64,000 bases of DNA, taken from an uncultured Candidatus Rokubacteria bacterium. GTDB lineage: Bacteria; Methylomirabilota; Methylomirabilia; Rokubacteriales; CSP1-6. This document shows positions 20,329 through 45,849 of this stretch, piece by piece; positions within the stretch are counted from its first letter, which is position 1, and the number at the start of each line of letters is the position of its first letter. The position numbers were made by a program, and so were the translations under genes. The notes below the pieces were generated by a model that saw only the letters and a list, made by a program, of their open reading frames with translations, did not search any database and was not told where the DNA came from. The stretch spans positions 32,001 through 96,000 of the forward strand of contig CAVXJS010000011.1 in NCBI GenBank assembly GCA_963762145.1, written 5' to 3'.

Positions 20329-20350
20329 ATCCTTCGAAGAGGAGATAGCC

Positions 20351-21496: not shown

Positions 21497-21533
21497 CGTC
21501 TCACGCCGCGCCGGCCGCATTCGCCGGATTGCC

Positions 21534-22739: not shown

Positions 22740-22906
22740 GCTTTCGCGAGCTCCGCTTCGAGCAATGCCGGCAAATAGGCATGCGCGAGGCAACCGCCTT
22801 GTGTAGATTCTACGCAGCACCGTCAGGTCTCATGCCAGCCCGATGCTCCTGATGTTTTAGCGATCGCCGGCGGAACCCAGTGGCGAGAGAGACTCATCAA
22901 ACAGAT

Positions 22907-24223: not shown

Positions 24224-24229
24224 CGCCCG

Positions 24230-27200: not shown

Positions 27201-27411
27201 GCCGCTGGTCTTCGCGACGGGCGCGGGCGCGGCCAGCCGGAACTCGATGGGCACCACGGTGGTGGGGGGGATGCTCGCGGTGACCGTGATCGGCGTGCTG
27301 CTGGTGCCCGCGTTCTACGTGGCGGTGGAGCGGCTCGCGGAATCGCGCCGGCGGCCCATCAGGAAGGGCACCGAGGCTGTCGATCTGGCCCCTCCTCGTT
27401 CGACTGTCTAG
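24230..27411 (+). CDS. RND (HAE1/AcrB-like) efflux permease (split by about 6 indels, probably assembly errors)
   Basis: FFIDRPIFA, YPGASAE, GIVVDDAIVVVEN, LAAQYESW, KNAILIVEFA and RFRPILMTSFAF spread over successive frames; breaks near 24900, 25510, 25865, 25920, 26192 and 26390. Confidence 0.9.
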
Positions 27412-27442
27412 CAGAGGCACCACCACCGGGGAGGAGAGGACG

Positions 27443-27805
27443 ATGATCCAAGGGCTGCGCGGCGCGACGATCTGGAGCGAGGACCTGGCCAAGCTACTGC
27501 CGTTCTACCGAGACCTGCTGGGCCTGTCGGTCGCGATCCAGATCCCGGGCTTCGTGGTGCTGGGGGAGCGGGGCGCGCCGTCGCTCGCGCTGGGTACCCA
27601 CAGCGAGGTGCGCGGCCGCAACCTGGACCCCGCGCGGCACATGGTGGGCCTCGGCAGCGACGACGTCGACGCCGACTGGACGCGGCTCGCGGCCGCCGGC
27701 GTGGAGTTCGTCGAGCGCCCGACGGATTACGGTCAGCTCCGGATCGCGACGCTGAAGGATCCCGAGGGTAACCTCATCCAGCTCCTGCAGCCCATCGCGG
27801 GGTGA
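27443..27805 (+). CDS. VOC/glyoxalase family protein
   Basis: FYRDLLGL, DDVDA...GVEF and LKDPEGNLIQL. Confidence 0.85.
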   Translation: MIQGLRGATIWSEDLAKLLPFYRDLLGLSVAIQIPGFVVLGERGAPSLALGTHSEVRGRNLDPARHMVGLGSDDVDADWTRLAAAGVEFVERPTDYGQLRIATLKDPEGNLIQLLQPIAG

Positions 27806-27809
27806 GGCG

Positions 27810-29027
27810 ATGAAGATCTTCTACGGCTGGGTCATCGTCGCGGTGGGGATCGTCGTCACCTGCGTCGGGTTCGGCGCGATGCTCACGCTGAGCGTCTTCC
27901 TGCAGCCCATGGCCGAGGCGATGGGGTGGTCGCGCTCGGGGATCGCCACCGCCGCGATGGTCAACTTCCTCTGCATGGGCCTCGGCGCGTTCATGTGGGG
28001 CGCGCTCTCCGACCGGCTCGGTACGCGCGCGGTCATCCTGTGCGGCGGCGCCCTGCTGGGGCTCGGGATGGTCCTGGCCAGCCAGGCGACCACGCTCCTG
28101 CAGTTCCAGCTCCTGTACGGCGCGATCGTCGGTGTCGCCACCGGGAGCTTCTACGCGCCGCTGATCTCGACCACGACCCGCTGGTTCACGCAGCATCGCA
28201 GCCTCGCGGTCGCCCTCGTCTCCGCCGGATTGAGCGTCGGCTCGACGGTGATGGCGCCGCTCTCGCGCTGGCTGATCACCAGCTACGACTGGCGCACCGC
28301 GATGTGGGTCATCGGCGATCTCGTGTGGCTCGTGATCATCCCGGCCGCCTTCCTGGTGCGCAATCCGCCGGGCGCCACGGCGGCCGCCGCGCCCCTGACC
28401 GCCGCCGGCCCGGACCTGACGATCGGGCAGGTGGTGCGCACGCCGCAGTTCGCGGCCATCGCGCTCACCCACTTCGCCTGCTGCGCGGCGCACTCCGGGC
28501 CGATCTTCCACATGGTCACCCACGCGATCGACCGGGGGGTGCCGGCGATGGCCGCCGCCACCGTGCTGAGCGTGGCCGGCCTCGCCTCGCTCAGCGGCAA
28601 GATCGGCTGCGGCCTCTTCGCGGACCGCGTCGGGGCGAAGCGAACGCTCGTGGCCGGCCTCGCGCTGCAGGCCGCCGCGATCAGCCTCTACCTCTTCACG
28701 GGCGGCCTGGGGGGCTTCTACGCGGCGGCGCTGGTGTTCGGCTTCGCCTACGGCGGCGTCATGCCGCTCTACGCCATCCTGGTGCGCGAGTACTTCGGGG
28801 AGCGGGTCATGGGCAGCGCGTTCGGGGCGGTATCGCTGGCGGCCACCCTCGGCATGGCGGTCGGGCCGTGGATCGGCGCCTACCTGTACGATTCGCTGGG
28901 CAGCTACGCGTGGATGTTCATCGGCTCGTCCGCGATCGGCATCGGGGCGGTGGCCATCGCGCTCACGTTCCGGCCGCCGGGGGCGGCGGCACCGCCGCGG
29001 CTCACGCCGCGCGCGGCGACGTCCTGA
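27810..29027 (+). CDS. MFS transporter (OFA/MCT-like)
   Basis: FYGW start, 12 hydrophobic segments, GALSDRLG and GLFADRVG. Confidence 0.9.
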   Translation: MKIFYGWVIVAVGIVVTCVGFGAMLTLSVFLQPMAEAMGWSRSGIATAAMVNFLCMGLGAFMWGALSDRLGTRAVILCGGALLGLGMVLASQATTLLQFQLLYGAIVGVATGSFYAPLISTTTRWFTQHRSLAVALVSAGLSVGSTVMAPLSRWLITSYDWRTAMWVIGDLVWLVIIPAAFLVRNPPGATAAAAPLTAAGPDLTIGQVVRTPQFAAIALTHFACCAAHSGPIFHMVTHAIDRGVPAMAAATVLSVAGLASLSGKIGCGLFADRVGAKRTLVAGLALQAAAISLYLFTGGLGGFYAAALVFGFAYGGVMPLYAILVREYFGERVMGSAFGAVSLAATLGMAVGPWIGAYLYDSLGSYAWMFIGSSAIGIGAVAIALTFRPPGAAAPPRLTPRAATS

Positions 29028-29119
29028 CCGGCCGGCGATTCTCGCTCAACGCCGGGGACCGGGAGCCCGGACAAGCTGAGAACCGGCGCAGGCTCTCGAT
29101 ACGTGTTTCACTGGTGGCT

Positions 29120-29866
29120 ATGGTGACGACCCTCAGCGGAAAAGTGGCGCTCGTAACCGGCGCCTCGCGCGGGATCGGCCGCGCGTGCGCGATCAAGCTG
29201 GGAACGCTGGGAGCCAGGATCGCGGTCAACTACAACAAGAGCGCCGCCGCGGCTGATGACGTCGTCGCCCGCATCAAGGCCGGCGGCGGGGAGGCCACGG
29301 CCGTGCAAGGCGACGTGAGCGACTTCGCCACCGCGCAGGCCGTCGTCAACACCGCCATCGGCGCTTACGGTCGGCTCGACATCCTCGTCAACAACGCCGG
29401 AACGACCCGCGACGGCCTGCTCGCGACGATGAAGGAAGAAGACTTCGACGTCATCATCCAGCAGAACCTCAAGAGCGTATTCAACTGTAGCCGCGCCACC
29501 CTCCGTCAGATGCTCAAGCAACGATACGGCCGCATCGTCAACATCACCTCGCTCGCGGGAGTGATTGGCGGCGCGGGCCAGACGAACTACGCGGCCGCAA
29601 AAGCCGGGATCATCGGCTTCACGAGGGCGATGGCGAAGGAGTATGGCGGGCGGAATATCGCGGTCAACGCCGTCGCGCCGGGCTACATCCCCACCGACCT
29701 GACGAGCGGTCTGCCGCCGGAGATCACGGAGAGCATCATCAAGCTGACGGCATACGGTCGGGCGGGAACCCCGGAAGAGGTGGCCAACGCCGTAGCGTTC
29801 CTCGCATCCGACGAGGCCAGCTACATCACGGGGCAGGTCCTGGCCGTCGACGGCGGAGTGGCGTAG
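29120..29866 (+). CDS. fabG: 3-oxoacyl-ACP reductase
   Basis: TGASRGIG, NNAG.TRD, GQTNYAAAKAG, NAVAPGYI and YITGQVLAVDGG. Confidence 0.9.
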   Translation: MVTTLSGKVALVTGASRGIGRACAIKLGTLGARIAVNYNKSAAAADDVVARIKAGGGEATAVQGDVSDFATAQAVVNTAIGAYGRLDILVNNAGTTRDGLLATMKEEDFDVIIQQNLKSVFNCSRATLRQMLKQRYGRIVNITSLAGVIGGAGQTNYAAAKAGIIGFTRAMAKEYGGRNIAVNAVAPGYIPTDLTSGLPPEITESIIKLTAYGRAGTPEEVANAVAFLASDEASYITGQVLAVDGGVA

Positions 29867-29936
29867 CTAGCCGGCGCACGAGAGCTCCATTGAGCCCTCT
29901 ACGCGGATCATGCTAGGCTTGCGCGTGGCTGCACGA

Positions 29937-30830
29937 ATGCCGTCGAGCATCGATAGGGCAGCGTTCCGCTGGTACTCGCACTCCTACAATCGGCCGAATT
30001 TTTATCGGCTCGCGGCGGCGTTGGGCTGGGTGCCACGCCGGTGGCGGCTTGCACTCGCACGGCGTATCGGGCGTCTCGCCCCGTCGCTCATGCCAACCGA
30101 ACGGGCCGCAATCGAGAAGGCCATGATGCGCTTCACCGGGGTCACCGGATCCCAGCTGGACACGCTCACCGTCCGCGTGTTCACTGATTTCGCCATGTGT
30201 TTCAGTGACTTGGTCTCGACAAACCGACAGCTCGCGGCGGTTCGCACCTTCCCGGTCGACAACGTGGAGGGCGTCGAACGGCTGGCCAGCCTGTCGGGGG
30301 GACTCATCTCGCTGACTGCGCACGTGGGCAACTGGGAGCTGGCCGGGCGGCTCCTCGCCGGAAGGAGTGCCCGGCCGACGCACGTGGTCGTCACTCCAGA
30401 CGAGGCGCGGGAGCTGCAACGCTGGGTGCGGCGGGATGGCGAAGGGGTGCGCTTCGTCTCGCGCTCGCGTCCCACCGTGTCGCTGGAACTGCTCGCCGCA
30501 CTCCGACGCGGCGAGGTGGTGGGTGTGCAAGGGGACCGGGCGCTCGGTACCAAGGGAGACGTTGAGATTCCCTTCTTTGGGCGCCCGGCACGGTTCCCGC
30601 TCGGGCCGTTCCTGCTGTCCAGCCGGGTCGGGGTCCCACTCTTGCCGGCCTTCTGCGTCCTGGACGCGCAGTATCGGTACAGGGTTAAAATAGCCGAGCC
30701 GTTCATCGCCGTGCGCGGCGAGGAGGAAGCCGCCGCGCGCACCTGGGTGGCGGCCCTCGAGGCCATCGTGCGGGAGTACCCGACTCAGTGGTTCAATTTC
30801 TTTGACATCTGGGCGCCGTTCGACCAGTAG
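29937..30830 (+). CDS. Lipid A lauroyl/lysophospholipid acyltransferase-family protein
   Basis: TAHVGNWE (HxxxxE), QGDR, PFFG..A.FP.GPF and YPTQWFNF. Confidence 0.88.
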   Translation: MPSSIDRAAFRWYSHSYNRPNFYRLAAALGWVPRRWRLALARRIGRLAPSLMPTERAAIEKAMMRFTGVTGSQLDTLTVRVFTDFAMCFSDLVSTNRQLAAVRTFPVDNVEGVERLASLSGGLISLTAHVGNWELAGRLLAGRSARPTHVVVTPDEARELQRWVRRDGEGVRFVSRSRPTVSLELLAALRRGEVVGVQGDRALGTKGDVEIPFFGRPARFPLGPFLLSSRVGVPLLPAFCVLDAQYRYRVKIAEPFIAVRGEEEAAARTWVAALEAIVREYPTQWFNFFDIWAPFDQ

Positions 30831-30857
30831 GACCACTTTCGGTTCAGGGGAGATGGG

Positions 30858-31133
30858 GTGGAGATCGACAAGGTGCTCGAGGAGCTCAAGGACCTCATGG
30901 TAGAGCGGCTCAAGTTCGAGCCGGGCCGCCTCCCAGAGCTGTCCCTGGCCACCGTGCTACCCAAGGACATAGAGGGATCGCTCGGGCTTGATTCGCTCGA
31001 CTTCATCGAGCTGTCGATTGGCATCGAGGAGCGCTTCGGGTTCGTAATCGACGAGTCGCAAGAGCTCGAGGCACACTTTCAGTCGTTAGGTACGTTGGTC
31101 GAGTACATCAAATCGCGCATGGCCGACCGCTGA
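30858..31133 (+). CDS. Acyl carrier protein
   Basis: LGLDSLDFIEL phosphopantetheine motif, IEERFG; 91 aa and acidic. Confidence 0.9.
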   Translation: MEIDKVLEELKDLMVERLKFEPGRLPELSLATVLPKDIEGSLGLDSLDFIELSIGIEERFGFVIDESQELEAHFQSLGTLVEYIKSRMADR

Positions 31134-31135
31134 CC

Positions 31136-32362
31136 ATGGATGAGGTCGGGGCCACGCAAGCAATCAGTGGCATAGGACAAGCCAAAGCCGACGCGGACGC
31201 CGCGTTGCTCCGGGAGATGCTCCCTCCGTATCTCCTGCCGGTTATCAACCGCTCGTTCCTCCGGTCGCACAATCTATACGACGAGTTCGTCTGCCGCTTG
31301 GTTCTCAAGGTCATCCGCGAGATGGGGCTTGAATCGGCGATCCGGGAGGGGGGCAGCGCAGAGGTGATCGCCGCGCGGGAGAGACTCGACGTCGGCCAAG
31401 CTGTCGTGCCACTCGACTGGATGCTGCGGCTATTGGCCGCGCATGGGGTACTGGAGCATCTCCCCGGCGGGTCGGCGCATGAGTTCCGTGCGCGTGGTCC
31501 CTTGCCTACGGCAGATCCTGCCGCCGTGCGCGATGTGCAGCTTCAACACGATCCGTCGTGGCTGCCTTCCTATGTCCTCGCGGAAACGGTCGCCCAGGAC
31601 TATCCCGCGTTTCTGCGGGGAGACGTCGTCGGTGAGGAGGTGTTGTTCTCGCCGCGCCGGCTTCGGCTCTGGGTCGACTTCTTTTCGAACCAGAACGGCT
31701 TGTACGCCGTGAACAACCGGATTGGAGCGGCGGCCGTCGAGCAGTGGCTCCCTCTGGACGGTGGGGTGCTTGTTGAGCTCGGCGGAGGGTTAGGTAGCGG
31801 TGCCATCGCAGTGCTGGAGCGCCTGGGGGTGGCGGGCCGGCTTGGAGCGATCCAAGAGTATCGGTTCACCGAGCTCGTACCCGCGTTCCTGCGGCGCGGC
31901 GAGCAGGCGTTGCGGGCGCGTCGGCCTGAAAGCGTGCCCATCAGATTCGACATCCTCGATATGAATCGCCCCTTCGAGGCGCAGGGTATCGCACCGTCCA
32001 GCGTCACCGCGGTCTATGCGGTGAACACACTCCACGTGGCAGAGGATCTTGATTTCACGCTGGGCCAGATCCTGCGCACGCTCCGTCCAGGCGGCTGGTT
32101 GATCGTATCCGAGTGCGTACGGCCGTACCCGCGCCAGACCATCTATGCCGAGTTCATTTTCAATCTGATCCGGACATTTCGATCTCCGCGCCTGCACCCG
32201 GTCTACCGCCCGAATGGTGGATTTCTCACCCCCGACCAGTGGAAGGGGGCGATCGAGTCCGCTGGGTTCGCGGACACGCGGTTCGTCCCGGATCTCATGC
32301 AGATCCGCCAGAAGGTTCCCGATTTCTTGGCCGGCGCGATCGGAGCGATCCGCCCGAACTGA
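31136..32362 (+). CDS. Stand-alone SAM-dependent methyltransferase resembling PKS C-methyltransferase domains
   Basis: LRGD..GEEVLF, VELGGGLGSG, YRFTE, LDMNRPFEAQG, AVNTLHVA and LRPGGWLIVSE. Confidence 0.8.
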   Translation: MDEVGATQAISGIGQAKADADAALLREMLPPYLLPVINRSFLRSHNLYDEFVCRLVLKVIREMGLESAIREGGSAEVIAARERLDVGQAVVPLDWMLRLLAAHGVLEHLPGGSAHEFRARGPLPTADPAAVRDVQLQHDPSWLPSYVLAETVAQDYPAFLRGDVVGEEVLFSPRRLRLWVDFFSNQNGLYAVNNRIGAAAVEQWLPLDGGVLVELGGGLGSGAIAVLERLGVAGRLGAIQEYRFTELVPAFLRRGEQALRARRPESVPIRFDILDMNRPFEAQGIAPSSVTAVYAVNTLHVAEDLDFTLGQILRTLRPGGWLIVSECVRPYPRQTIYAEFIFNLIRTFRSPRLHPVYRPNGGFLTPDQWKGAIESAGFADTRFVPDLMQIRQKVPDFLAGAIGAIRPN

Positions 32363-32430
32363 GCTCGGAAATCGGGGATGCTCTGCGGTCGGCTCGTGGG
32401 GCGGCCGGCCGGCGCCGCCGCGCCGCGGCT

Positions 32431-34727
<2,297 letters not shown>

Positions 34728-34731
<4 letters not shown>

Positions 34732-36770
34732 GGCTGCCCCGCGGCCGGCAGCGAGGCGGTGAAGCTGACCTCGCCGCGGCCCTGTTTGGCTTCGAGCCGG
34801 CCTCCCTGGCTCTCGAAGATCCGCTGGCTCACGCTTGGTCCCACGTCGATGAGATTCTCCTGCACGACCTGGATCGGATCGAAGATCGCCTGCAGCTCCT
34901 CGGCCCGCACCTCCGTGGTACGGGAGGCCACCGTGAGGCGCACGCGTTCGTCGCTCGGCAGATGGGAGATCGATACCGAGATCTTGGCCTCGGGCGCAGG
35001 CGTCTTGCGCAGGAGGTACCAGACCAGGTAGGACAGGGCCTTCTTGAACATCGCGTGATCACCGCGGACCAGCAAGGGCGAGCCCTCGTGGGACAGGGTC
35101 GCGGTGACGTGCTTCTGGGTGGACTCGTCGGTGAAGGTGAGGAGGCGCGCCTGCCCCTCGCCGTCGGGAAGGGCCTGCGCGCCCAGCTCGGCCAGGCACT
35201 CTTCCGCCACTTGCCGCAAGTCGAGCGTCTCGCGCTTGTAGTCGCCGTCGTTCACGAGGGCGGCGAGCTTGTCGAAGATCTGCACGAGCCGGCGCACGTC
35301 CCGGCCGACCACCGACGAGAACTGGTTGCGGAACGTCGCGTCGTCGTAGCGCTCGCCGATCAGCTCCATGAAGGCGTTGATGGAGACGAGCGGGTTCTTG
35401 ATCTCGTCCGCGATACGGGCCACCACCTGGGTGAGGAGCTGGAGCTGCTCGGCGCCGCGCCGCTCCTGGGCGAGCAGGCGCTGGGCGGTCAGATCCTCGA
35501 ACATCAGCACCGCCCCCATCGGCTCGGGGCTATCGCCCATCACCGGGTAGGTCGAGACCTCCAGCGGCAGATTGCGGAGAGCGAGCTGCACCTCGACCCG
35601 CGTCACCGAGCGTCCTCGGGACAGGGCCTCGAAGAGCATGTCGCCGAGCGGGGAGGGCAGCACGCGCAGGTCGCGATTCAGCGCTTCGCGCGCCGGCAGC
35701 GCGAGGATCTCCGACGCGCGGCTATTGATCCCGACGACCTTCTGGTCGGTGTCGATGGTGATGACGCCACTCGACATGCGCGCGAGGATCCGCTCGGTGA
35801 AATCCTTCTCGTACTGGAGCAGGTGATGCACCCGGATGTCGCGGATGGCGGTGGCCAGGTGAGCGCCGATGTTGAACAAGGTCTCGGTCTCGTCGCGCCG
35901 GTACCCGCCGCCGGTGATCCGCTGGCCCAAGGAGAGAATGCCCACCAGCTCCCCGTGCGAGCTGAGCGGAATCGCCACTACCGATTGCAGGACGGCCAGC
36001 TCGCGGGCGATCTCGCGAGTTTCAGGATCCGTGGCGCGGCTCTGAGCCTCTTCGATCTGGATGAGTCGACCCTCGGTGGCCAGCCACCGAGGCAGGCCGC
36101 CGTCCGCGCTCAGGGCGAGCGACTCCACGACGTGAGGCGCGAGGGCGCGATACGCGGCGACGCGGTAGAGGCGAGTGACGGGATCCGCGAGCAGGATCGC
36201 GCAGCGGCTCGGACGCGCCAGCTCCGCGACCCCGTCGAGGAACTGGTCCAGCACGCGCGGCAGATCGAAGCCGGCCGCGAGGGCCTTCGCGAACTCCTTC
36301 GCCATCTGGGTGAGCGCGTGCGAGGACGCGGGCGGGGCCGGCACCGCGGCGTCGTGCGCGCTCTCCGCGACCGGGCGCCGCGTCGACCGCAGGGCGGCCA
36401 CTTCCTGCAGCAGGCGGAGCTTGTCCTCGGCCTGCTTGAGCAGGGCCTGCAAGTGCCGGGTCGTGAACGGCTGGAGTAGCACGAAGTCGGCCGCCTCCGC
36501 CGCGCTCTCGTCCTCGGAGCTCGTGGAGCTCGGATTGAGTACGCACACGATGACCCCGGTGGGGCATAGGTGCCGCGCCCGCGTGATGAACGGGGCGAGA
36601 TGTTTGAGAGGTGGCGTGGCCTCCTTGATGATCAGCTCCATCTCGGTGAGGCGCAGGGTTCGCAGCGCCTCGTCATCCGAGGTGGCGGTGAAGACGGAGC
36701 TGTCCTCCAAGGCCCGAAGCAGCTTGGGGCGGAGCGACTCGCTCGCCGAGACCAGGAGGACGGTCTTCAC
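34728..36770 (-). CDS. Pseudo-histidine kinase REC*-GAF-PAS-HisKA*-HATPase*
   Basis: Degenerate receiver; GAF (VAIPLSSHGELVGILSLG); PAS (SGVITID); H-box IADEIKNPL; N, G1 and G2 boxes missing. Confidence 0.82.
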
Positions 36771-39271
36771 GGCGTGGCGTGCGCGGGCCGGCCCGAGGGG
36801 ACGGGGAACTCGACGGTGAACGTGCAGCCGGGCCGCCCGACGTTGTTCCGGGCGTGGATTCGCGCGCGGTGGGCGTCGGCGATGCTCCGGCAGATGGCGA
36901 GGCCCAGCCCCGTGCCCTGGGGCTTAGTGGTCACGAAGGGGTCGAAGATGGTCCCGAGGAGGTGGTCGGGGATGCCGGGACCGGTGTCCGCGACCTCGAC
37001 GAGCAGCGTGCTACCGCCTCCCTCGGAGAGGTCGGCTACACGTACGGTCAACTCGCCGCCGGGTTCCATTGCTTGGATGGCATTTAAGCACAGGTTCAGA
37101 AAAAGCTGCTGCAACTGTGAGGCATTGCCGAGCACCGGCCGTCGCGTCTGCTCGCCGACCCGCCGGAGCTGAATCTTGCGGTCGACGAGCTCGGCGTGGA
37201 GGGTCTCCAGGGTGTCGCGCAGCGGGTCCGAGACGTCGACCATCTCCATGGGATGCTGGGAGGCCCGCGACATCGTGCGGAACCGGCTCAGCAGATCGTC
37301 GATGCGCCCGATCTCCCGGCCGGCCGACCGGGAGAACATCTCGCGGAACTCCTCGTTCGCGCCGCGTGTGGGCAGGAGCTGCGCGTAGGTCTTGATCCCG
37401 ACGAGGGGATTGCGGATCTCGTGGATCAGGCCCGACGCGATCGCCTCGATCGAGGCCAGGCGCTCCGCCCGCCGCTTCTCCTGCTCCAGCTCCTTGAGCC
37501 GCGACATGTCGGCGAGCACCGCGACCGCACCCAGCGGCGCCCCGTCCGGCCCGCGCAGCGGCGACGTGGAGCACATGAGCGGCACCATCTGGCCCGCCGC
37601 GTCGGGTAGCGAGAACTCGATCTGGGACCGCGGCTCGCCATCGAGTGCGGTGGCGTGGAGCGCGCCGCCGAGCGGATTGGGCAGGCATTCGGGTGACTGG
37701 CCGCGCGCCACCTGGGCCGCCGTCCCGGTGAGCTGCTCGGCCGCCCGATTGAACAGGGTGATACGCCCGCGCGGCCCCACGGCCACGACCCCACTCTCGA
37801 TGGTCTCGAGGACCTTCCGCATCTCCTCGTTGACCTGGACCACGCGCGCGTGAGTCTGCGCGTTCCGCACCGCGACCGCTGCCTGGTTGGCGAGCGTTGT
37901 GAGCAAGTCGGCATCATTACTGAAATATGGATCGCCCGACCGCTTGGGGCCGAGGACGAGGAAGCCTATTAGTTCGTTCTCCTCGACGATCGGTCCGACT
38001 ACCTCTGCCCGGAGCTCATCCAACTCTCGAAGTAAGTGGTCGGTGTCGGTTGCTCGTGTAGAAACGATCTCGTCCCGAAAGACAAGCAGACGATTCTTGT
38101 CTAAAGTCAGTATCAAGGCTGAAGTTATCGGCAAAGCTGCTCCGAGACTTCCTGAGTAGAGGTTCCACTCCAACCTAAACTCATGATCTTCATGGTCGAG
38201 CAAGTATATGGACATCCCGTCTGGACGCAGCGTCGATGCTAGAGCGCGCCCTACGTGACCAAGAATTGCCTGCAGGTCTATCGTCGCGGTAAGCGCGCGA
38301 CTTGCTTCCCGGACTGTACGTGGATAGTCATACGGTTCCCGGTACAGGTAGAGGTCCAGTAAATGCTGGACCCGAGACTTTACGGATTGAAACGCCAAGG
38401 CAACGATCAGAGACAGTGCGATGTCGCGGAGCGAGAATCCGTGCTCGAGAGGCAGCAGGAAATTTGAGCTGAACAGGAGAGCGACGAAGAGTGCGGCGCT
38501 GCTAAGGAACGTGACGAGATAGACCACGCCTCGTCTGATGACCACGCGAATGTCCATGAATCGGTGCCGAATTATCGCGTGAGCAACCATCGCGATCATG
38601 ATCAGCGAAAATACTGGACCGAGCCCATTATAGGCTGATGTTCCAGCTACCAGAGGCACGAAGACATTCGTGGTTGTTGCCAATACTCCCGGAACGATGA
38701 ACGCGACAAACAAGTAGCCGGCTTGGGTCTTCTGAAACCCAGTGAGACGCTTGTACTGTCGAGCTAGCGTCGAGGCGGCAAGGGCAAAGCAAACGATCGT
38801 GTAACTCGCAAAGAGCGGATGCAAGAAACCATAGATAGGTCGCATCCCATACGCTTCGCGCGTGACTCCGCTGACCATCCAAGGTGAGAACGAGAGCGCC
38901 GACAGGCCGATCGCAACAGCGGCCAGTAGACGAAGCCGCCGCCTTTGGACAGTCTCTGGTGCTCCGAAGTGCACTACGAAGAGAAGGACGCCGAAAGGAC
39001 AGAGACTTCCTGCCCCGAAGGCGGCCCGGATGGCGAGTTCGAAGGAATCTGGCTGGAACCGTCCCCAGGACAATGCCATCGTCCACAAACCAATCGTCAG
39101 GGCAGTGAACGCGAATGCGCGGTTTAGTGACACGGATGGATTTCGACGATAAACATACAGACCAATGCCAACATTTAGGATGGCAATCCAGGCGAGCAAC
39201 AACGCGGCAATCGGCACCTGGCTCAGTTCAGTCGTCTCCTTGCATTGCTCGGGGCGCCGTTGGGCCGACAA
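36767..39271 (-). CDS. Membrane sensor histidine kinase (HisKA_7TM-like multi-TM, GAF, PAS); exact start uncertain
   Basis: YRRNP...NRAF TM region, HAIIRHRFMDI, YDY, LGPKRSGDPY, HEIRNPL, NLCLNAIQAM, DTGPGI and GTGLGL. Confidence 0.9.
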   Translation of the reverse strand: MSAQRRPEQCKETTELSQVPIAALLLAWIAILNVGIGLYVYRRNPSVSLNRAFAFTALTIGLWTMALSWGRFQPDSFELAIRAAFGAGSLCPFGVLLFVVHFGAPETVQRRRLRLLAAVAIGLSALSFSPWMVSGVTREAYGMRPIYGFLHPLFASYTIVCFALAASTLARQYKRLTGFQKTQAGYLFVAFIVPGVLATTTNVFVPLVAGTSAYNGLGPVFSLIMIAMVAHAIIRHRFMDIRVVIRRGVVYLVTFLSSAALFVALLFSSNFLLPLEHGFSLRDIALSLIVALAFQSVKSRVQHLLDLYLYREPYDYPRTVREASRALTATIDLQAILGHVGRALASTLRPDGMSIYLLDHEDHEFRLEWNLYSGSLGAALPITSALILTLDKNRLLVFRDEIVSTRATDTDHLLRELDELRAEVVGPIVEENELIGFLVLGPKRSGDPYFSNDADLLTTLANQAAVAVRNAQTHARVVQVNEEMRKVLETIESGVVAVGPRGRITLFNRAAEQLTGTAAQVARGQSPECLPNPLGGALHATALDGEPRSQIEFSLPDAAGQMVPLMCSTSPLRGPDGAPLGAVAVLADMSRLKELEQEKRRAERLASIEAIASGLIHEIRNPLVGIKTYAQLLPTRGANEEFREMFSRSAGREIGRIDDLLSRFRTMSRASQHPMEMVDVSDPLRDTLETLHAELVDRKIQLRRVGEQTRRPVLGNASQLQQLFLNLCLNAIQAMEPGGELTVRVADLSEGGGSTLLVEVADTGPGIPDHLLGTIFDPFVTTKPQGTGLGLAICRSIADAHRARIHARNNVGRPGCTFTVEFPVPSGRPAHATP

Positions 39272-39286
39272 TCCACGCGAGTGAGC

Positions 39287-41782
39287 CTAGCTGCGAAGTG
39301 CTGTCTTCTGTAGTAACTCAGCAGCCGCAGTAGGTACGGGTAGTTCTACGATCATCGTAGTACCCCGGCCAGTCAGGTTGCGCTCGACACGAATGGTTCC
39401 GCGATGCGCGTCTGTAATGCCACGGCAGATGGTCAACCCGAGGCCCGAGCCACGAGACTTAGTGGTAAAGAACGGATCGAAGATGTTGGCGGCAACTGCA
39501 TCGGATATCCCCGGTCCGGTGTCAGAGACATCGACAACAATCAGTGGCATGCCTTGCGAGTGCCGTCGTGTGATCCTAACGGTCAGTGCACCATCGGTGC
39601 CCATAGCTTCAATTGCATTGAGAAACAAGTTGAGGAAGAGTTGCTTGAGCTGACTTTCCTCGATGCTCACAAACGGTGCTGGGTCCTCGAACTCGCGCAC
39701 AACTGCCGTGCGGGTTTGCTCCAATTGACCTCTCAACAATGTCAGAGTGTCGTTGATCGGATCCCGGAGATCGACGGCGCCAACCTGCTGAGGTGCCGTT
39801 GTGGCAAGGCCTCGCAATCGAGCGACGAGATCGTCGATGCGGGAGATCTCTTTAATTACAACCTTGGAAAAGTCTTCCCGAAATTCGACGTCACCGAATC
39901 GCTCCGGAAGCAGCTCAGCAAAGGTGCGTATGGCGACGAGAGGATTCTTGATCTCGTGTGCAATGCCCGCCGCAAGGGCTCCGAAAGAAGCTAGGCGCTC
40001 GGCACGCTGCTTCTCCCGTTCGAGGTCCTTGAGCCGGGTCAGGTCAGTGAAGACTATGAGCGCCCCGTGTGTTGTTCCGTCCTTGTCTTGGAGCTTAGTT
40101 GTTGAGTACACGAGGGGCAGACCCGATCCATCACGTTGATGTAGAACCGTCTCGAGTTGGGAATGGGCGGACCCTTCGAGGAGAGTGCTCCGAAGCGGCC
40201 CAGCCAGCGGTGTGGGTAGGTCGTTGTAGGAGAGACCGGCGGACGATGAAAACCGCATATTGGTTAGCCGGTCCGCCGCGGGATTAAACAGGGAGATGTG
40301 TCCGGTGGCGTCTACCGCGATTACGCCGCTTTCCATAGTCGAGAGGATGTTATCGACGTATTCATTGGCTACGACAACTTGACTGTAGAGGTGGGCGTTC
40401 TTCACTGCGACGGCAGCCTGACTGGCCAATGTTGAGAGGAGGTCGATGTCGCGGGAGTAAAACGGGTCGCCGGAGCGTTTTTCGCCAATGATGATGAAGC
40501 CGGCCAGCACTTCATCCTGAAATAGAGGGAATAGAATCTCGCCGCCAACACGCTCCAACATGTTGGCGGCGTCAGATAGCAGGGCGTGATCAGTGTCGAG
40601 TACATCATCTCGGGTGAGGGTGCGCTTGTGGATGCTCAGATAGGAAGGCAGTGCCGAAGCGTAGGGGATGGGGGCAATGGAATAACCGGCTGGTCGTTGA
40701 TCAGATGTAGCAATCTCCGGCGCGGAGAAGGCGCGGAGAGCGTCGTTTCGAAGGTAGATTTGAACAAGTTCGACTTTAAACGTCCTGCGGACGGTGTCAG
40801 CGAGGTAGCCGAGAAGCGACTGTAGATCGAGCATGGTGCTCAAGCGAAGCGTAGTCTCGCGAAGTGTTCGCTGGTAGTCGTACGTATGCCGATACACGTA
40901 TCTGTTTAGCGTCGCCTGCAGCCAGTCCTTTAGGGGCCCGAAGAATACGGAGACCGCTATAGCGAGCAGCAGTGCTTCAAGGATCGGAATCGTTGTTCTT
41001 TGGAATCCGGTTACGTGATGTAGCGCTTCAACGAGAGCGAAGAACGTCGATGCGGTTACTACGATGGCCCCCACATAGACGACACCATTGCGAATCACCA
41101 ACTGGATGTCCAGGAGACGGTGTCGAATGATTGCGTGTGCAATGATCGCAATCATTAACATCCCGAAGAGCGGCCCATAGGGACTGAATCGCGACGTCTC
41201 GAAGACGAGCGGAATGAGGAGATTGGTGACGGTCGCTCCGAGAGCGGCAATCAAGACGGCAGCGAACAGGTAGCGAACCTGAAGTTTCTCCAGGCCGGTC
41301 AGAGATCGGAGTTTCCGGACGAGAATAAAGAGACTTGTTCCGAAGCAACAAATGAGATACACCGCGAACGGCAAATGGAGTGGTCCGTGGAGTACCTGAA
41401 GAGTGCCGTCCTTCGATGCAGTATTGCGGACCATCAAAGACGTGAACGAGACGATGAACGAGATGGCCGCTACTATCGAGAACAAGTTCAGAAGGCGCCG
41501 AGAGGCATGCGGCTGGAAGGTTGGAAAGACATCAGCGAACCGTAGGAAGGTTATCGGAATAAGCGAGGCGGAGGCGAACGCGAGTCGGGCCCAGACGGTC
41601 CCTGAGTCGTATCCAGCGTACGATGACACGAGGCCGTTACTGAGCGTCCAAGCAGCGACAGCAAGAGAGAAGAAGGCGAAATGCCGATTGATTGCCTTAA
41701 GTGGATTCTTCAGATAGACGAAGAGGCCAAGCCCGAAGTTGGCGATGGCAGCTATGACAATAAATGTGAGGCGGCCCGTCAT
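39287..41782 (-). CDS. Membrane sensor histidine kinase, paralogue of the 36767-39271 kinase
   Basis: YLKNP...NRHF, HAIIRHRLLDI, YDY, GEKRSGDPF, IAHEIKNPL, NLFLNAIEAM, DTGPGI and GSGLGL; ATG overlaps the ketosynthase stop (ATGA). Confidence 0.9.
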   Translation of the reverse strand: MTGRLTFIVIAAIANFGLGLFVYLKNPLKAINRHFAFFSLAVAAWTLSNGLVSSYAGYDSGTVWARLAFASASLIPITFLRFADVFPTFQPHASRRLLNLFSIVAAISFIVSFTSLMVRNTASKDGTLQVLHGPLHLPFAVYLICCFGTSLFILVRKLRSLTGLEKLQVRYLFAAVLIAALGATVTNLLIPLVFETSRFSPYGPLFGMLMIAIIAHAIIRHRLLDIQLVIRNGVVYVGAIVVTASTFFALVEALHHVTGFQRTTIPILEALLLAIAVSVFFGPLKDWLQATLNRYVYRHTYDYQRTLRETTLRLSTMLDLQSLLGYLADTVRRTFKVELVQIYLRNDALRAFSAPEIATSDQRPAGYSIAPIPYASALPSYLSIHKRTLTRDDVLDTDHALLSDAANMLERVGGEILFPLFQDEVLAGFIIIGEKRSGDPFYSRDIDLLSTLASQAAVAVKNAHLYSQVVVANEYVDNILSTMESGVIAVDATGHISLFNPAADRLTNMRFSSSAGLSYNDLPTPLAGPLRSTLLEGSAHSQLETVLHQRDGSGLPLVYSTTKLQDKDGTTHGALIVFTDLTRLKDLEREKQRAERLASFGALAAGIAHEIKNPLVAIRTFAELLPERFGDVEFREDFSKVVIKEISRIDDLVARLRGLATTAPQQVGAVDLRDPINDTLTLLRGQLEQTRTAVVREFEDPAPFVSIEESQLKQLFLNLFLNAIEAMGTDGALTVRITRRHSQGMPLIVVDVSDTGPGISDAVAANIFDPFFTTKSRGSGLGLTICRGITDAHRGTIRVERNLTGRGTTMIVELPVPTAAAELLQKTALRS

Positions 41783-43032
41783 CGGAGGTTCGACTTCCCC
41801 AGGATGAGAACTGAATGAGTGCCGCCCATCGCGTGTGCATTGATCAACACAGTCCGGACTCGAGAGATACGGGCTTCGTTCGGGACGTAGTCGAGATCGC
41901 ACTCAGGGTCGGGGACTTCGTAGTTGATCGTCGGGGGAAGTATGGAGTGTTCGAGAGTAAGGCAGCTGGCGACCGTCTGGAACGCGCTCGCAGCTCCCAT
42001 TGCATGGCCGATCATGGACTTGATCGAGCTCACCGGGATGGAGTAGGCTCTCTTGCCAAAAACCTGATGGAATGCGCGCGTTTCGATTAGGTCGTAGTCG
42101 GGCAAGGAATTGCCGTGGGCATTTATGTAGTCAATGTCCTCGGGTCTGAGGCTCGCAGCCTCGAGGGCAGAGTTAATTGCCTCGGCGAGCGCAAGCTCCG
42201 CTGCGTTCATCCTATTGCCAAACCCGCCCTCATTTCCGCTTCCGAACCCCAGTACCTCAGCGTAGATATTTGCACCTCGGTCGAGAGCGTGGCCGAGTTC
42301 CTCGAGAATGCAGATCGCTGCTCCTTCTCCGAGTACGAGCCCGTCTCTGCGCCTGTCGTAGGGGCGCGAAGCCTTGAGCGGCGGGTCATCGAACTTGGAT
42401 AGTGCCCCCAGCGCACAAAGAGTCGCAAAGCAGAACTCGGAAATTGGGGCCTCGGTGCTGCCTGCGAAAACTACGTCTGCCTCGTTCTCTCGGATCCGAT
42501 CGGCCGCCCACTGGATTGCGTCGACGCCGGTAGCGCAGGCAGATGCGATGGTCATTCCTTGCCCGCGGATGCCAAGTTCCGACGACACGTGACTAACGGG
42601 AGCATGAGCAGCGAACTCGATCCCGCTCATCGTCGGAATACCCTTCATGCCCTCGCGATCGAAGCCAAGGCGAGCGGTCTCGTACACGTCGCCCGAGCCA
42701 TTCATGGAATTGCCTAGGCAAGCGAAAACCCGCCTGGCCGGCTCAATCCCGAGATCAATACCTGCATCGGCCTGCGCGAGCTTTGCGGCGCCGACAGCAA
42801 ACTGGGAAAATCTGCCGCGATGCTTCGTCCTTCGCACGTGCATGAACGCCTTCGGGTCGAAGTCTCGTATCTCGCCGGCAACCTGGCAGGGGTAGGGCGA
42901 AGCATCGAACGCGGTGATGTAATCGATGGCGGACTTGCCCGCGATCAGGTTCTGCCAGAAGGTTTCCTTGCCGATGCCGTTGGGGGCAACGACACCCAAC
43001 CCCGTAATAACTACTCGCCGGGAGTTCTTCAT
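41779..43032 (-). CDS. fabF: FabF-like beta-ketoacyl-ACP synthase with atypical motifs
   Basis: RRVVITGLG, SACATG (Cys), RPYD.RRDG.VLGEGA, INAHGNS (His) and SIKSMIGHAMG (His). Confidence 0.85.
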   Translation of the reverse strand: MKNSRRVVITGLGVVAPNGIGKETFWQNLIAGKSAIDYITAFDASPYPCQVAGEIRDFDPKAFMHVRRTKHRGRFSQFAVGAAKLAQADAGIDLGIEPARRVFACLGNSMNGSGDVYETARLGFDREGMKGIPTMSGIEFAAHAPVSHVSSELGIRGQGMTIASACATGVDAIQWAADRIRENEADVVFAGSTEAPISEFCFATLCALGALSKFDDPPLKASRPYDRRRDGLVLGEGAAICILEELGHALDRGANIYAEVLGFGSGNEGGFGNRMNAAELALAEAINSALEAASLRPEDIDYINAHGNSLPDYDLIETRAFHQVFGKRAYSIPVSSIKSMIGHAMGAASAFQTVASCLTLEHSILPPTINYEVPDPECDLDYVPNEARISRVRTVLINAHAMGGTHSVLILGKSNLR

Positions 43033-43082
43033 CAGGCCCGTGCCCCCTAAGGGTGCGTGATAAAAGGTGGGATAGAGCCTAT

Positions 43083-43141
43083 AAAGTAGCAGGAAATAAA
43101 TCTAAAACCAAATCCCGTCGTCCGGGTGCGTCGAGTAGAAT
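43083..43141. promoter_or_regulatory. AT-rich divergent promoter region
   Basis: Minus strand TTGGTT(43111-43106)-N17-TACTTT(43088-43083) with a TG extension, pointing to the ketosynthase; plus strand TAGAAT(43136-43141) 8 nt before ATG 43150. Confidence 0.45.
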
Positions 43142-43149
43142 GCCACCAT

Positions 43150-43953
43150 ATGGAGCACTTGCTGAGCCGACGGCAGCTGCTGGTCGCCCTGCCGCTCGGG
43201 CTGTTGTTCGGCCTCCGCCGGGCCCAGGCCTTGGAAGACGGCCGATCCGCCTTCAACTACAAGCTTGATCTATCTGTTCTCTTTAGCTTTTTGACTCTTT
43301 CCGTGACCGGCACCGCGGTTCAGGAGATTGACCGCCGGGCCGGGAAGTATCGGATGACGATGGAGGGGCAGGGCACGGGGATCAGCACCCGCACGGAGGC
43401 CAATGGCATCATCCGGGACGGCCGCTTCAAGCCGGTCGAGACGAAGGCGGTCCACCACTTCAGGAACCGCCAGAACACCTCTATCACCACCTACGACTAC
43501 ACTCGGCAGCGAGCCGAGATCCACGCGGTCAGCCACACACTGCTGCTGGGCCGCCGCCGGCAGATAGACGACGTCTTGGCCATTCCCCCGGAGCGCCACG
43601 TGGACGATCTCATCTCGGCCGCGCTGAACTTTGCCGAGGACTTGCTCGACCGCGAACCGGATGGCACGTACCACACCTGGGTGGTCCGTCGGGCCCGCGC
43701 CGCCAACGAAGGGCCGGACGACGTCTCGCCGGACGGTTACCGTGCCGAGCTGGTCCCGCTGCGCTTCCGCCCGACCCCCGACCCGGCCACCGGGGGTCTC
43801 ACCACGCAGATCGACATCACCCGCTTCTCGTCCTGGGCCCGCCCCGACCAGCCCGCCCGGGTCACGTTCGCGCCGGACCGGCAGCTCTCGTCCGTCCAAT
43901 CGGTCCTGCAGTACGGGACGACCCTCAACGTGCGTGTGACAGGCACCGCGTGA
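43150..43953 (+). CDS. Tat-exported beta-rich protein (DUF3108-like)
   Basis: SRRQLL twin-arginine signal; alternating beta-strand pattern; DDLISA motif. Confidence 0.6.
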   Translation: MEHLLSRRQLLVALPLGLLFGLRRAQALEDGRSAFNYKLDLSVLFSFLTLSVTGTAVQEIDRRAGKYRMTMEGQGTGISTRTEANGIIRDGRFKPVETKAVHHFRNRQNTSITTYDYTRQRAEIHAVSHTLLLGRRRQIDDVLAIPPERHVDDLISAALNFAEDLLDREPDGTYHTWVVRRARAANEGPDDVSPDGYRAELVPLRFRPTPDPATGGLTTQIDITRFSSWARPDQPARVTFAPDRQLSSVQSVLQYGTTLNVRVTGTA

Positions 43954-44930
43954 GCCGGCCCGAGCCGCAGCACGATCTGGTCGGCCTCGGCGAGGTGATG
44001 CTACGGCTCGCCGCCCGCCCGCCCCAGCGTCTCGAGCAGGCCCAGGACCTGGACGTGCAGATCGGCGGCACCGAGGCCAATGTGGCCGCGGCCTGCGCCC
44101 GGCTCGGCCTGCGCACCGCCTTCATCTCGGTGCTGCCGTCCGAGCACGCGTGGGGCGACCGCACGATCCGCGAGCTGTCGGGACACGGGGTGGACTGCCG
44201 TGGCGTGCTCCGCCGCGCGGGCCAGCGCATGGGTCTCTACTTCATCGAGTACGGCATGACGCCGCGGCCGGTCCGCATCCTCTACGATCGGCGCGACTCT
44301 GCGTTCAGTCGCCTCGTGGCGGACGACGTGGACTGGTCGCTGATCCGGAGCGCCCGGCTCGTCCATCTCACCGGGGTGACCGCCGCGCTCGGGGACAACG
44401 TCCGCGACGTCGTGCGGCGCGCGATCGCGGAGGCGGCGGCGGCGGGCGTGCCGGTATCCTTTGACGTGAACTATCGCTCCCGTCTGTGGAGCCCGAAGGA
44501 GGCGCGGGATTTCCTCGGGGAGATCCTGCCGCGTCTCGGGTATCTCTTCATCGGCGGAGACGACGCGGCCACCGTGCTTGAGCTGGAGGGTACGCCCGAG
44601 CAGGTGCTCGCCGGGCTGCGCCGCCTCGCGCCCACGGCCACCATCGCGCTCACGCTGGGGGAGGCCGGGTCCGCGGTGCTCACCGAGCGCGGCGTCCACC
44701 GGCCGTCCAAGCTCTACACGGTCTCGGTGGTGGACCGGGTGGGGGCGGGGGACGCCTTCGCGGCGGGGTTTCTCTGGGCCACGTTGACCGGCCGCGATGC
44801 GCAGCAGGCGGTGGACGCCGGGACTGCCTTGGCCGCGCTCAAGTGCACGATCTGGGGCGACGTGCCCGTGGTGAGCCGGGCCGAGCTCGACGAGCTGCTG
44901 GCCACGGATAGCACCGAGATCCGCCGCTAG
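43950..44930 (+). CDS. PfkB-family sugar kinase (2-keto-3-deoxygluconate kinase-like)
   Basis: GEVMLRL, GGTEANVA, YDRRDSA, FDVNYR..LW and DRVGAGDAFAAG. Confidence 0.9.
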   Translation: MSRPEPQHDLVGLGEVMLRLAARPPQRLEQAQDLDVQIGGTEANVAAACARLGLRTAFISVLPSEHAWGDRTIRELSGHGVDCRGVLRRAGQRMGLYFIEYGMTPRPVRILYDRRDSAFSRLVADDVDWSLIRSARLVHLTGVTAALGDNVRDVVRRAIAEAAAAGVPVSFDVNYRSRLWSPKEARDFLGEILPRLGYLFIGGDDAATVLELEGTPEQVLAGLRRLAPTATIALTLGEAGSAVLTERGVHRPSKLYTVSVVDRVGAGDAFAAGFLWATLTGRDAQQAVDAGTALAALKCTIWGDVPVVSRAELDELLATDSTEIRR

Positions 44931-44939
44931 CGAGGGGCC

Positions 44940-45815
44940 GTGGCGCGCTCCGCCGTCCTCGTCCACAATCCCGGCTCCGGTCAGCGCCGCGATCGCTTCC
45001 ACTCGATCACGCGGATGGTGGATGCCCTCCGCGCGCGCGGCGTCACGGTCACCCCGCAGGTCACCACCGGCCCCGCCGACGCCACCCGGCTCACCGCGGC
45101 CGCATTGCTGGCGCGCACGGACCTGATCATCGTGCACGGCGGCGACGGCACCGTGAACGAGGCGATGCAGGTTGTGGTCGGCACGGCCACCCCGCTCGCG
45201 GTGTGGCCGGGCGGCACGTCCAACGTGCTGGCCCGCGAGCTCGGGCTGCCGGGCGGCATCGAGCTCCTCGCCGACGTGTTCGCGGCAGAGCGGATCCGGC
45301 GGGTGTCGGTGGGCCGGGCGGGGGAGCGCTACTTCCTCCTCATGGCCGGGGTCGGCCTCGATGCCGACGTCGTGCGGGCAATCCACCCGGGGCTCAAGCG
45401 CCTGACGGGCGAAGGGGCTTACTGGATGGCCGGGCTCCGCCAGCTCGCGGACTGGCACCCCGTGCACTTCGTGCTGGAGACCGACGCCGGCCAGCACCGC
45501 GCCACCTTCGCCGTGGTGGCCAACGCGGCGTCCTACGGCGGGGGCCTGCGCTTCGCCCCGGACGCGCGCATGGACGACGACCTGCTCGACATCTGCCTGT
45601 TCGACTCCACCCAGCGCCACCGCTTCGCCCGCTACCTGGCCGCGGCCTTCACGGGCTCGCATCTGGGCATGCCCGGCGTGACGTACCTGAAGGCCCGTCG
45701 CGTGGTGGTGCACGGCGACCCCGGCCGCTTCGTGCAGGTCGACGGCGAGCTGCTCGGCCCGCTGCCCGTCACCTTCGAATGCGTGCCCGACGCCCTATCC
45801 CTGGTGGTGCCGTAG
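44940..45815 (+). CDS. Diacylglycerol kinase (YegS/DAGK) family lipid kinase
   Basis: NPGSG, GGDGTVNE, PGGTSNVLA, GVGLDA, YGGG and QVDGE. Confidence 0.9.
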   Translation: MARSAVLVHNPGSGQRRDRFHSITRMVDALRARGVTVTPQVTTGPADATRLTAAALLARTDLIIVHGGDGTVNEAMQVVVGTATPLAVWPGGTSNVLARELGLPGGIELLADVFAAERIRRVSVGRAGERYFLLMAGVGLDADVVRAIHPGLKRLTGEGAYWMAGLRQLADWHPVHFVLETDAGQHRATFAVVANAASYGGGLRFAPDARMDDDLLDICLFDSTQRHRFARYLAAAFTGSHLGMPGVTYLKARRVVVHGDPGRFVQVDGELLGPLPVTFECVPDALSLVVP

Positions 45816-45849
45816 AAGCGGAGGCTCCAGCGGTGGTATAGTTCGCCTG

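Follow-up and report, generated by a model that had tools for sequence, protein, structure and literature searches.

A divergent ketosynthase gene heads an operon of sensor kinase genes in an uncultured Candidatus Rokubacteria bacterium, and the body of the ketosynthase, the whole of the first kinase and the sensor half of the second together form a sharply bounded allelic cassette of low guanine plus cytosine (GC) content, whose allele classes cut across the relatedness of strains. The operon may pair the maker of a lipid ligand with membrane receptors for it. It is found in a window of 64,000 nucleotides (positions 32,001 to 96,000 of contig CAVXJS010000011.1, assembly GCA_963762145.1), which has about 70% GC as a whole, and all coordinates are given as window positions. 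This genome is called G000; its relatives and the families of the phylum are referred to by similar handles (G009, f4 and so on).

Organisation and conservation of the operon

The unit extends from 32431 to 43953 and comprises an operon of five genes on the reverse strand, together with a divergent gene, orf275. The first gene encodes a FabF-like ketosynthase (KS, 41779-43032) with the Pfam domains ketoacyl-synt and Ketoacyl-synt_C. It is followed by two sensor histidine kinases with the Pfam architecture HisKA_7TM-GAF-PAS-HisKA-HATPase, HK1 (39287-41782), which lies entirely within the variable cassette, and HK2 (36767-39271), which is a mosaic gene. The fourth gene, psHK3 (34728-36770), encodes a soluble GAF-PAS-DHp pseudokinase that is HisKA-like and has no HATPase match. 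The last gene, HK4 (32431-34731), encodes a soluble hybrid kinase with the Pfam architecture REC-GAF-PAS-HisKA-HATPase-REC.

An earlier note on this DNA had named these genes and domains, and the listing of open reading frames and the Pfam and NCBIfam scans on which the gene calls are based bear it out. The three four-base overlaps of stop and start codons that it pointed to are real: the ATGA shared by the KS stop and the HK1 start (41782-41779) was read straight from the sequence, and those at 36770/36767 and 34731/34728 were deduced from the reading frame coordinates. Its statement that the locus lacks a DNA-binding output regulator also stands, as there is no DNA-binding domain in any of the nine products. 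An Rfam scan of 28000-46000 gave no match, promoter-like sites (4 against 2.3 expected) and terminator-like sites (8 against 8.0) are at chance level, and among the 22 runs listed as containing this stretch there is none of RNA.

The pseudokinase was searched for in 251 genomes of the phylum, with KS matches accepted at E <= 1e-95. The tallies include two unpublished genomes (G243, G094), on which no specific claim depends. psHK3 is present in 138 of the 251 genomes, by family in 115 of 158 (f1), 18 of 21 (f4), one of one (f5), one of one (f2), two of two (f6) and none of 67 (f3 and f7-f13). KS lies 0.4-10.5 kb from psHK3 on the same contig in 58 of these 138 genomes, from families f1, f4, f5 and f6; these are kin genomes, and the counts are not independent. 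Among the paired matches there is no case in which KS and psHK3 are far apart on one contig, and the linkage persists down to about 35-45% protein identity. The arrangement of ketosynthase and kinases is beyond chance.

The KS ortholog loci of 14 relatives have a 7TM kinase directly after KS in every case, and psHK3 and HK4 come next wherever the contig continues. The order of ketosynthase, kinase, pseudokinase and hybrid kinase had been predicted to be conserved, and it is, across the group. KS is directly upstream of the 7TM kinase in the examined loci of f1, f2, f4 and f5. The operon also has variants, with one kinase in place of two in G031, G040 and G203, and, in f4, a single kinase together with a tandem pair of KS genes. 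Rearranged loci keep KS beside a 7TM kinase; this is the case in G218, where the KS-HK pair is divergent from psHK3-HK4, and in G190, where it is separated by 6 kb. Ten of the loci with psHK3 and no KS match on the contig were examined. Nine of these contigs stop 0.8-5.4 kb upstream of psHK3, and the tenth locus (G154) does contain a KS gene, which is frameshifted.

The ketosynthase is not the housekeeping FabF, in agreement with the earlier view that it does not belong to a normal fatty acid synthesis arrangement. It scores 403.7 bits on TIGR03150, under the FabF equivalog cut-off of 493.75, and its orthologs score 413 bits (allele class B, described below) and 319 bits (f4). The genome's own FabF, encoded on contig C7 with a fabG homolog adjoining, scores 669 bits and is 40% identical to KS. 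KS matches the ketoacyl-synt and FabF models and not ACP_syn_III. With housekeeping FabF, a 3-ketoacyl-acyl carrier protein synthase of type II (KAS II), it shares its fold, its length, and the Cys, the first His and the Lys of the KSM motif; across the KS orthologs the Cys and first His are invariant and the Lys is present. It differs in its score and identity, in lying outside any fab cluster and at two sites. The FabF motif HGTST reads HGNSL or HGSSL in KS orthologs. The window KS retains a Cys-His-His triad, in which the second catalytic His (41995-42009, KS codons ~342-346) is His in clade A and Gln in most other orthologs (G009, G002, G007, G037, G040, G036, G028 and the second KS of f4), with Asn in G031. 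We know of no other FabF-type enzyme with a Cys-His-Gln triad.

HK1 and HK2 match HisKA_7TM (PF16927) with 59.2 and 42.1 bits, respectively, against a cut-off of 28.6, and the 6.26-Mb genome has no further sensor of this type. Both have about 7-8 transmembrane (TM) or hydrophobic segments with scant extracytoplasmic mass, and their H, N, G1 and G2 boxes are intact in alignment. psHK3 and HK4 have no TM segments. psHK3 has Asp at the site of the phospho-acceptor His and lacks the N, G1 and G2 boxes, so that its earlier designation as a pseudokinase was correct. The same degeneration is seen in all five orthologs checked besides that of G000 (G009, G040, G028, G046 and G047, from families f1, f4 and f5), and the orthologs in f6 keep the His and the G boxes. 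HK4 is 84-94% identical within the genus; its second-best NCBIfam match is CckA, with 266 bits, which is far under the cut-off. A His-less kinase-like protein encoded alongside a hybrid kinase recalls the DivL-CckA pair of Caulobacter, but DivL has Tyr at the His site, whereas psHK3 has Asp and has lost its ATP-binding boxes.

The divergent gene orf275 (43126-43953, forward strand) encodes an exported protein with a twin-arginine signal and a predicted DUF1849/LolA-like half-barrel. Its RR motif is invariant across 23 homologs, and its start is possibly at 43150, judging from homologs of 267 amino acids. It has no Pfam match over threshold. The best, to PF11306 (DUF3108), stays under the cut-off of 26 bits for that family (18.8 bits, E 0.0015), and some near homologs have a precomputed match to this family. 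The structure model (pLDDT 87) is an open beta half-barrel. Among solved structures it comes nearest to 6ntr, a DUF1849 protein of Brucella (Z 12.3 across 193 residues), with Z scores of 7-9.8 against LolA chains and 8-10.6 against porin and autotransporter barrels. The fold class predicted by the model is clear, and function is not given by these matches. Because f4 retains orf275 with the operon, at its opposite end, a functional tie between the two is suggested. Two kinase genes come after orf275 (together 43950-45815). One encodes a sugar kinase of the PfkB family, nearest to models of 2-dehydro-3-deoxygluconokinase, and the other a lipid kinase of the YegS type (44940-45815); both are syntenic with orf275 in most f1 loci examined.

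The low-GC allelic cassette

The variable cassette (~38015-42800, reverse strand) was delimited by GC, by divergence and by blastn edges, and includes the KS body, HK1 and the sensor half of HK2. GC drops from about 0.70, which is also the value for the genome, to 0.54-0.58 over ~37950-43500, and the cassette itself is at ~0.55. HK1 has a GC of 0.555, and 0.62 at third codon positions (GC3). In HK2, GC3 jumps from ~0.6 to more than 0.9 at codons 426-476; codons 1 to ~440, the sensor half, are low in GC and variable, and the PAS-kinase half is conserved. Amino acid composition was ruled out as the cause of the low GC, as the drop is at third codon positions and extends over KS, which is soluble, and over HK1 including its kinase core. 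Of the 14 relatives' loci, 12 have the same trough in the corresponding position, G040 has a weaker one and G035 has none; with the exception of G035 the cassette is at ~0.55 GC in all f1 lineages examined.

Windows of 2 kb with GC under 0.60 make up 0.5% of the genome, and the cassette is among the four largest such islands. Other large low-GC islands are at C22:100001-108000, C9:765501-771500 and C19:414001-420000. The largest, on C22, contains a phage-type integrase, a Prim-Pol primase and a DUF927 gene, and those on C9 and C19 contain mixed genes.

The edges of the cassette in blastn comparisons are sharp and recurrent, and both are intragenic. One is at 37959-38015 inside HK2 and the other at 42763-42842 inside KS (~codons 65-90), such that KS codons 1 to ~70-90 are conserved and the rest of the gene belongs to the cassette. 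The flanks have 78-91% DNA identity to those of relatives, and the cassette has none or is patchily aligned. Two relatives, G020 and G005, have the same allele class as the window and are colinear with it over both edges. Domain scans of the cassette and its neighbourhood turned up neither integrase nor transposase nor phage genes, and a mobile element was ruled out on the lack of an integrase or transposase within it.

A step in GC3 inside a single gene could be produced by a chimeric join of two organisms in the metagenome assembly, which has 5.4% contamination and several broken genes. The trough nevertheless recurs at this position in at least 12 further genomes, which were assembled independently, and G020 and G005 are each colinear over both edges on one contig (95 kb and 61 kb, respectively). 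We reject an assembly chimera on these grounds and consider it extremely improbable.

Contigs often end at or just inside the edge of the cassette (window equivalent 37807-38015). Seventeen contigs end inside the kinase adjoining psHK3, nine of them within ~55 codons of the edge. Co-existing alleles that disrupt metagenome assembly would account for these breaks. As a result KS and psHK3 are often placed on separate contigs (G007, G017, G036), or KS seems to be absent from bins. Because assemblies tend to break here, surveys of gene content undercount KS.

Comparison with the congeneric genomes G009, G002 and G007 separates the cassette from its surroundings. Flanking proteins are 79-87% identical, and those of the cassette are 53-55% (KS), 52-53% (HK1) and 40-45% (N-terminal half of HK2) identical. 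The C-terminal half of HK2 has 71-84% identity to these genomes; against G009 alone the two halves of HK2 are at 44% and 82%. G017 and G009 have 94% DNA identity up to a point inside KS and are then unalignable, and G017 has the allele class of the window. The flanks of the metagenome contig L074 are as near to the window as those of any genome (89.8% DNA identity; 93%, 89% and 93% protein identity for the C-terminal half of HK2, psHK3 and HK4), yet its KS is only 54% and its HK1 52% identical. The least conserved part of both sensors, even inside one allele class, is at residues ~340-400, in the GAF domain. In this stretch G000 has 38-52% identity to G020 or G005, and HK1 proteins of different classes have 14-21% to each other.

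Trees of the cassette and of its flanks are discordant. In the KS tree the genus of the window (g1) splits into two classes, of which class A joins G035 and G030, from other genera (support 100/99), and class B joins G037, from another family (100/100). The approximately unbiased (AU) test rejects monophyly of g1 for KS (p 1.4e-91). The trees of psHK3, HK4 and the C-terminal half of HK2 recover g1 at 100/100, with G017 as the sister of G009. The earlier note had proposed to compare the phylogenies of KS and sensors, and the outcome is divided: the link of class B to G037 is repeated in the HK1 sensor tree, but the G035 and G030 sensors and the HK2 sensor halves deviate. Co-inheritance of KS and sensor is strong but not perfect.

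Synonymous divergence (dS) between G000 and G020 is 1.36-1.5 in the cassette and 0.26-0.5 in the flanks, and the ratio of nonsynonymous to synonymous divergence in the cassette is 0.05-0.10. The cassette genes are under purifying selection. For this genome relaxed constraint or pseudogenes were rejected, as the frames are open and the ratio is low. KS genes are frameshifted in some relatives (G008, G023, G154).

The intragenic edges and discordant trees show allelic replacement and not its cause, and the diversity of the cassette could come from another pressure. Phages or contact-dependent toxins might use 7TM proteins as inner-membrane receptors, or horizontal replacement might have been repeated, with KS carried as a linked passenger that has an unrelated metabolic role. 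Recombination is expected to homogenise a neutral passenger, whereas the KS body is as diverged as the sensors and its edge at codons 70-90 is sharp. Imported DNA typically has low GC, and an integrase and primase element makes up the largest low-GC island of the genome; the cassette and its surroundings, however, have no integrase, transposase or phage gene, and its ~0.55 GC throughout f1, G035 excepted, argues against recent imports from varied donors. The incomplete match between KS clade A and the HK1 sensor clades would suit a passenger, but KS stays beside a 7TM kinase over four families and through rearrangements. We think this explanation quite unlikely.

The same genes can be compared in f4, in eight congeners of G046. 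Identities there are 86-90% for the second KS, 79-83% for the sensor half, 90-92% for the kinase half and 78-84% for psHK3. These loci have 0.70-0.75 GC throughout, with neither a trough nor excess divergence. The trough of 15 points in f1 coincides exactly with the allelic cassette, and where these genes lack polymorphism there is no trough. This coincidence provides a clean test case for recombination shaping base composition.

A possible lipid ligand and its receptors

Full-text literature searches found no description of a KS-linked HisKA_7TM kinase system, nor of a communication system in this phylum. We suggest that KS may make a lipid ligand which the 7TM/GAF sensors detect, with the cassette setting specificity by analogy to agr and comQXP, a reading that in our estimate approaches an even chance. 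The divergent FabF-type KS would condense acyl thioesters, probably from the acyl carrier protein (ACP) pool of the cell, into an unusual acyl or beta-ketoacyl product. This product, or a lipid derived from it, would be the ligand of the 7TM/GAF sensor modules of HK1 and HK2, and the LolA/DUF1849-like orf275 may handle it in the periplasm. In the order of phosphotransfer that we envisage, HK1 and HK2 would feed a cytoplasmic relay of psHK3 and HK4, the output of which would lie outside the locus. In f1 the KS body, HK1 and the sensor half of HK2 would be inherited and exchanged as one block, setting both the ligand made and the ligand heard. We rate a lipid ligand with cognate receptors as the likeliest reading because the block of enzyme and sensor is exchangeable, because it is discordant with relatedness and because the kinase core and relay are conserved.

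A self-made lipid ligand gains independent support from the allelic cassette of KS and sensor, and further support from the operons of two f6 genomes (G061, G062), which belong to another order and have ~0.55 GC. The operon of G061 (C4, L071, 4331-13181) consists of KS, an NAD-dependent reductase, a membrane methyltransferase of the ICMT/PEMT family, a 7TM kinase, the psHK3 ortholog and a REC-HD regulator. The reductase is complete, of the short-chain dehydrogenase/reductase (SDR) type, with Epimerase and NAD_binding_4 domains. In G062 (C131, L070) the methyltransferase and the REC-HD regulator are matched, and the reductase is matched over 51 residues only. In both genomes the methyltransferase is encoded between KS and the kinase. 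In these operons lipid-modifying enzymes therefore sit between KS and sensor. The pseudokinase and hybrid kinase arose after this f6-type operon, which is more basal.

Several points weigh against a lipid ligand made and heard by the same operon. In f1 and f4 a single FabF-type KS, unaccompanied by a dedicated ACP, thioesterase or release enzyme, makes a thin biosynthetic pathway, and the PEMT-like methyltransferase of f6 suits membrane-lipid remodelling equally with signal synthesis. Physical linkage alone makes KS and sensors co-vary, and a shared cassette is no proof of functional pairing. The co-variation is also imperfect: the HK1 sensors of G035 and G030 form a separate clade although their KS is of class A, and for HK2 the sensor halves of the two classes group as sisters, on long branches, inside the genus. 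Part of the excess of dS in the cassette may come from extreme GC3 constraint on the flanks. As f4 keeps the operon without allelic diversity, diversification is not intrinsic to the system.

Homeostasis of membrane lipids offers another account of the same genes. KS would remodel acyl chain length, and the 7TM kinases would sense the physical state or composition of the membrane and regulate envelope functions, with KS and sensors co-varying because the TM helices need to fit a bilayer that is partly the work of KS. FabF alters acyl chain length in the thermal adaptation of E. coli, and DesK is the model for a kinase that senses the physical state of the membrane. The FabF-like KS with its intact or near-intact triad would fit such a role, as would sensors of ~7-8 TM segments with little mass outside the membrane, the PEMT/ICMT-family methyltransferase of f6, the resemblance of orf275 to envelope lipid carriers and DUF1849, and the nearby YegS-type gene, which is syntenic in the genus. 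Discrete and deeply diverged allele classes in near-identical genomes are not expected on this account, nor are allele trees that cross genera, and the variable part includes the cytoplasmic GAF domain, where identity is lowest, and not the TM helices alone. For these reasons we hold homeostasis to be unlikely, though to a lesser degree than the passenger explanation above.

The suggested lipid ligand system has its nearest likeness in peptide pherotypes. In the agr locus of Staphylococcus, AgrB and AgrD form specificity groups with the AgrC sensor, and in comQXP of Bacillus ComQ and ComX do so with the ComP sensor. Both agr and comQXPA have the gene of the signal maker adjoining that of the receptor kinase, and here the candidate maker is KS. 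In both the variable block consists of the maker and the membrane half of the sensor, with the kinase core and downstream genes conserved, and their allele classes cut across strain relatedness, as do those described here in the AU test, in L074 and in the pair G017 and G009. For comQXPA, the N-terminal sensor of ComP is described as variable and its cytoplasmic domain as conserved (PMC4008528). The signals of those systems are ribosomal peptides, whereas no gene for a peptide precursor or its processing is found among the operon genes here. There are four kinase-like proteins here rather than one, with no DNA-binding response regulator in the locus, and for the strong GC trough we found no documented counterpart in agr or com. 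The locus may work like a pherotype locus of the agr/comQXP type, by analogy, and is not a member of it.

A fatty-acid-derived signal and a multi-TM (hybrid) histidine kinase, as proposed here, are also features of the diffusible signal factor (DSF)/Rpf system of Xanthomonas and the Phc system of Ralstonia. The REC-HD regulator of the f6 operon recalls RpfG, and its methyltransferase recalls the methyl-ester chemistry of PhcB. However, neither an RpfF-type crotonase nor a PhcB-type enzyme is present in the conserved set, in which the candidate synthase is a KAS II-type KS. In contrast to Rpf, f1 and f4 have a hybrid kinase in place of the REC-HD regulator, which is found only in the two f6 relatives. 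In contrast to Phc, the methyltransferase encoded elsewhere in the window (MT, below) is unlinked to the kinases in relatives, and that of f6 is of a different family, ICMT/PEMT.

Condensing enzymes of the thiolase superfamily are the key signal synthases for the pyrones of PpyS, the dialkylresorcinols of DarB and the products of PqsBC and PqsD. Those enzymes are FabH-like (KAS III) with Cys-His-Asn, and their receptors are soluble LuxR- or LysR-type proteins, whereas KS matches FabF models and its receptors would be membrane kinases.

We put forward more tentatively, as having clearly less than an even chance, that the exchangeable KS and 7TM/GAF cassette is a lipid counterpart of peptide pherotypes, by which closely related soil Rokubacteria would use different lipid dialects, and that its low GC is the footprint of long-standing balanced alleles. 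Such alleles may, as a conjecture, escape the GC enrichment that is linked to recombination. Specificity groups in cell-cell signalling are, to our knowledge, known solely for peptide systems. If the proposal is true, KS together with membrane kinases would make up a lipid version, and so a new class of signal-receptor pair, in an uncultured and widespread soil phylum. HisKA_7TM is an orphan sensor domain, for which the literature passages on the domain that we retrieved name no ligand, and the locus offers a concrete candidate for a ligand source. The cassette also provides natural pairs of class A and class B for the comparison of cross-talk.

The neighbouring lipid module and other genes

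Four genes on the forward strand converge on the operon. These are fabG (29120-29866; TIGR01830 302 bits against a cut-off of 298), an LpxL-family acyltransferase (AT, 29910-30830; PF03279 83.8 bits against a gathering threshold of 22.3), an ACP (30858-31133) and a class I methyltransferase of 408 amino acids (MT, 31136-32362). Every NCBIfam equivalog score of the acyltransferase is far under its cut-off. The convergence described earlier is thus present in this genome, but it is not a general arrangement and is seen in this genome only.

The earlier note had made these four genes part of the system, with KS, ACP, MT, FabG and AT jointly building one modified acyl signal that the kinases would sense. 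They are adjacent to the operon in this genome; none of them, however, is beside HK4 in the 13 relatives' loci that extend at least 2.9 kb beyond it. MT is found in only 15 of 60 relatives and never on the contig of the operon where both are placed. In the seven relatives examined (fabG)-AT-(ACP)-MT is on a contig other than that of the operon, with no KS nearby; that the module has no KS of its own there speaks for the joint synthesis. A paralogous lipid cluster on contig C7 (170000-176200, L059) encodes an SDR, a protein with an unknown domain and an LpxL-like AT, a KS that is apparently frameshifted, an ACP and a second KS. Its AT and ACP are 44% and 62% identical to those of the window. 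This cluster shows the form of a complete module of this type, and that such modules work with a KS.

The DNA behind HK4 in G020 and G005 matches window 18066-21498 with 88-94% DNA identity, and the 10.9 kb at ~21500-32400 are absent at this place in both. The block, which encodes a cyclase, HlyD, a broken AcrB, a glyoxalase and an MFS protein as well as the fabG-AT-ACP-MT module, is therefore specific to this genome here. A joint synthesis of the signal by all of these enzymes is already contradicted as a conserved system, and we consider it very improbable for the locus. The four genes are probably a neighbouring lipid module and not a part of the kinase system. The neighbours of the module in G020 (a gene of 258 amino acids, HipA and an SNF2 helicase) give no clue to its pathway.

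In G020 and G005 a thiolase gene (20330-21496 in the window) lies next to HK4. G020 has a DUF222-HNH gene between the two, of which this genome has at least four related copies. Two larger genes of the window are in pieces. An AcrB-type pump is split into 24230-24955 and 25993-27411, and a UvrD/PD-(D/E)XK helicase-nuclease into 45850-46401, 46469-47302 and 47299-48759, and in both the pieces match successive parts of their Pfam models; these are either assembly frameshift errors or pseudogenes. At 16688-18042 there is a gene for an ECF sigma factor and, after it, one for an anti-sigma factor whose C-terminal domain is of the RskA type.

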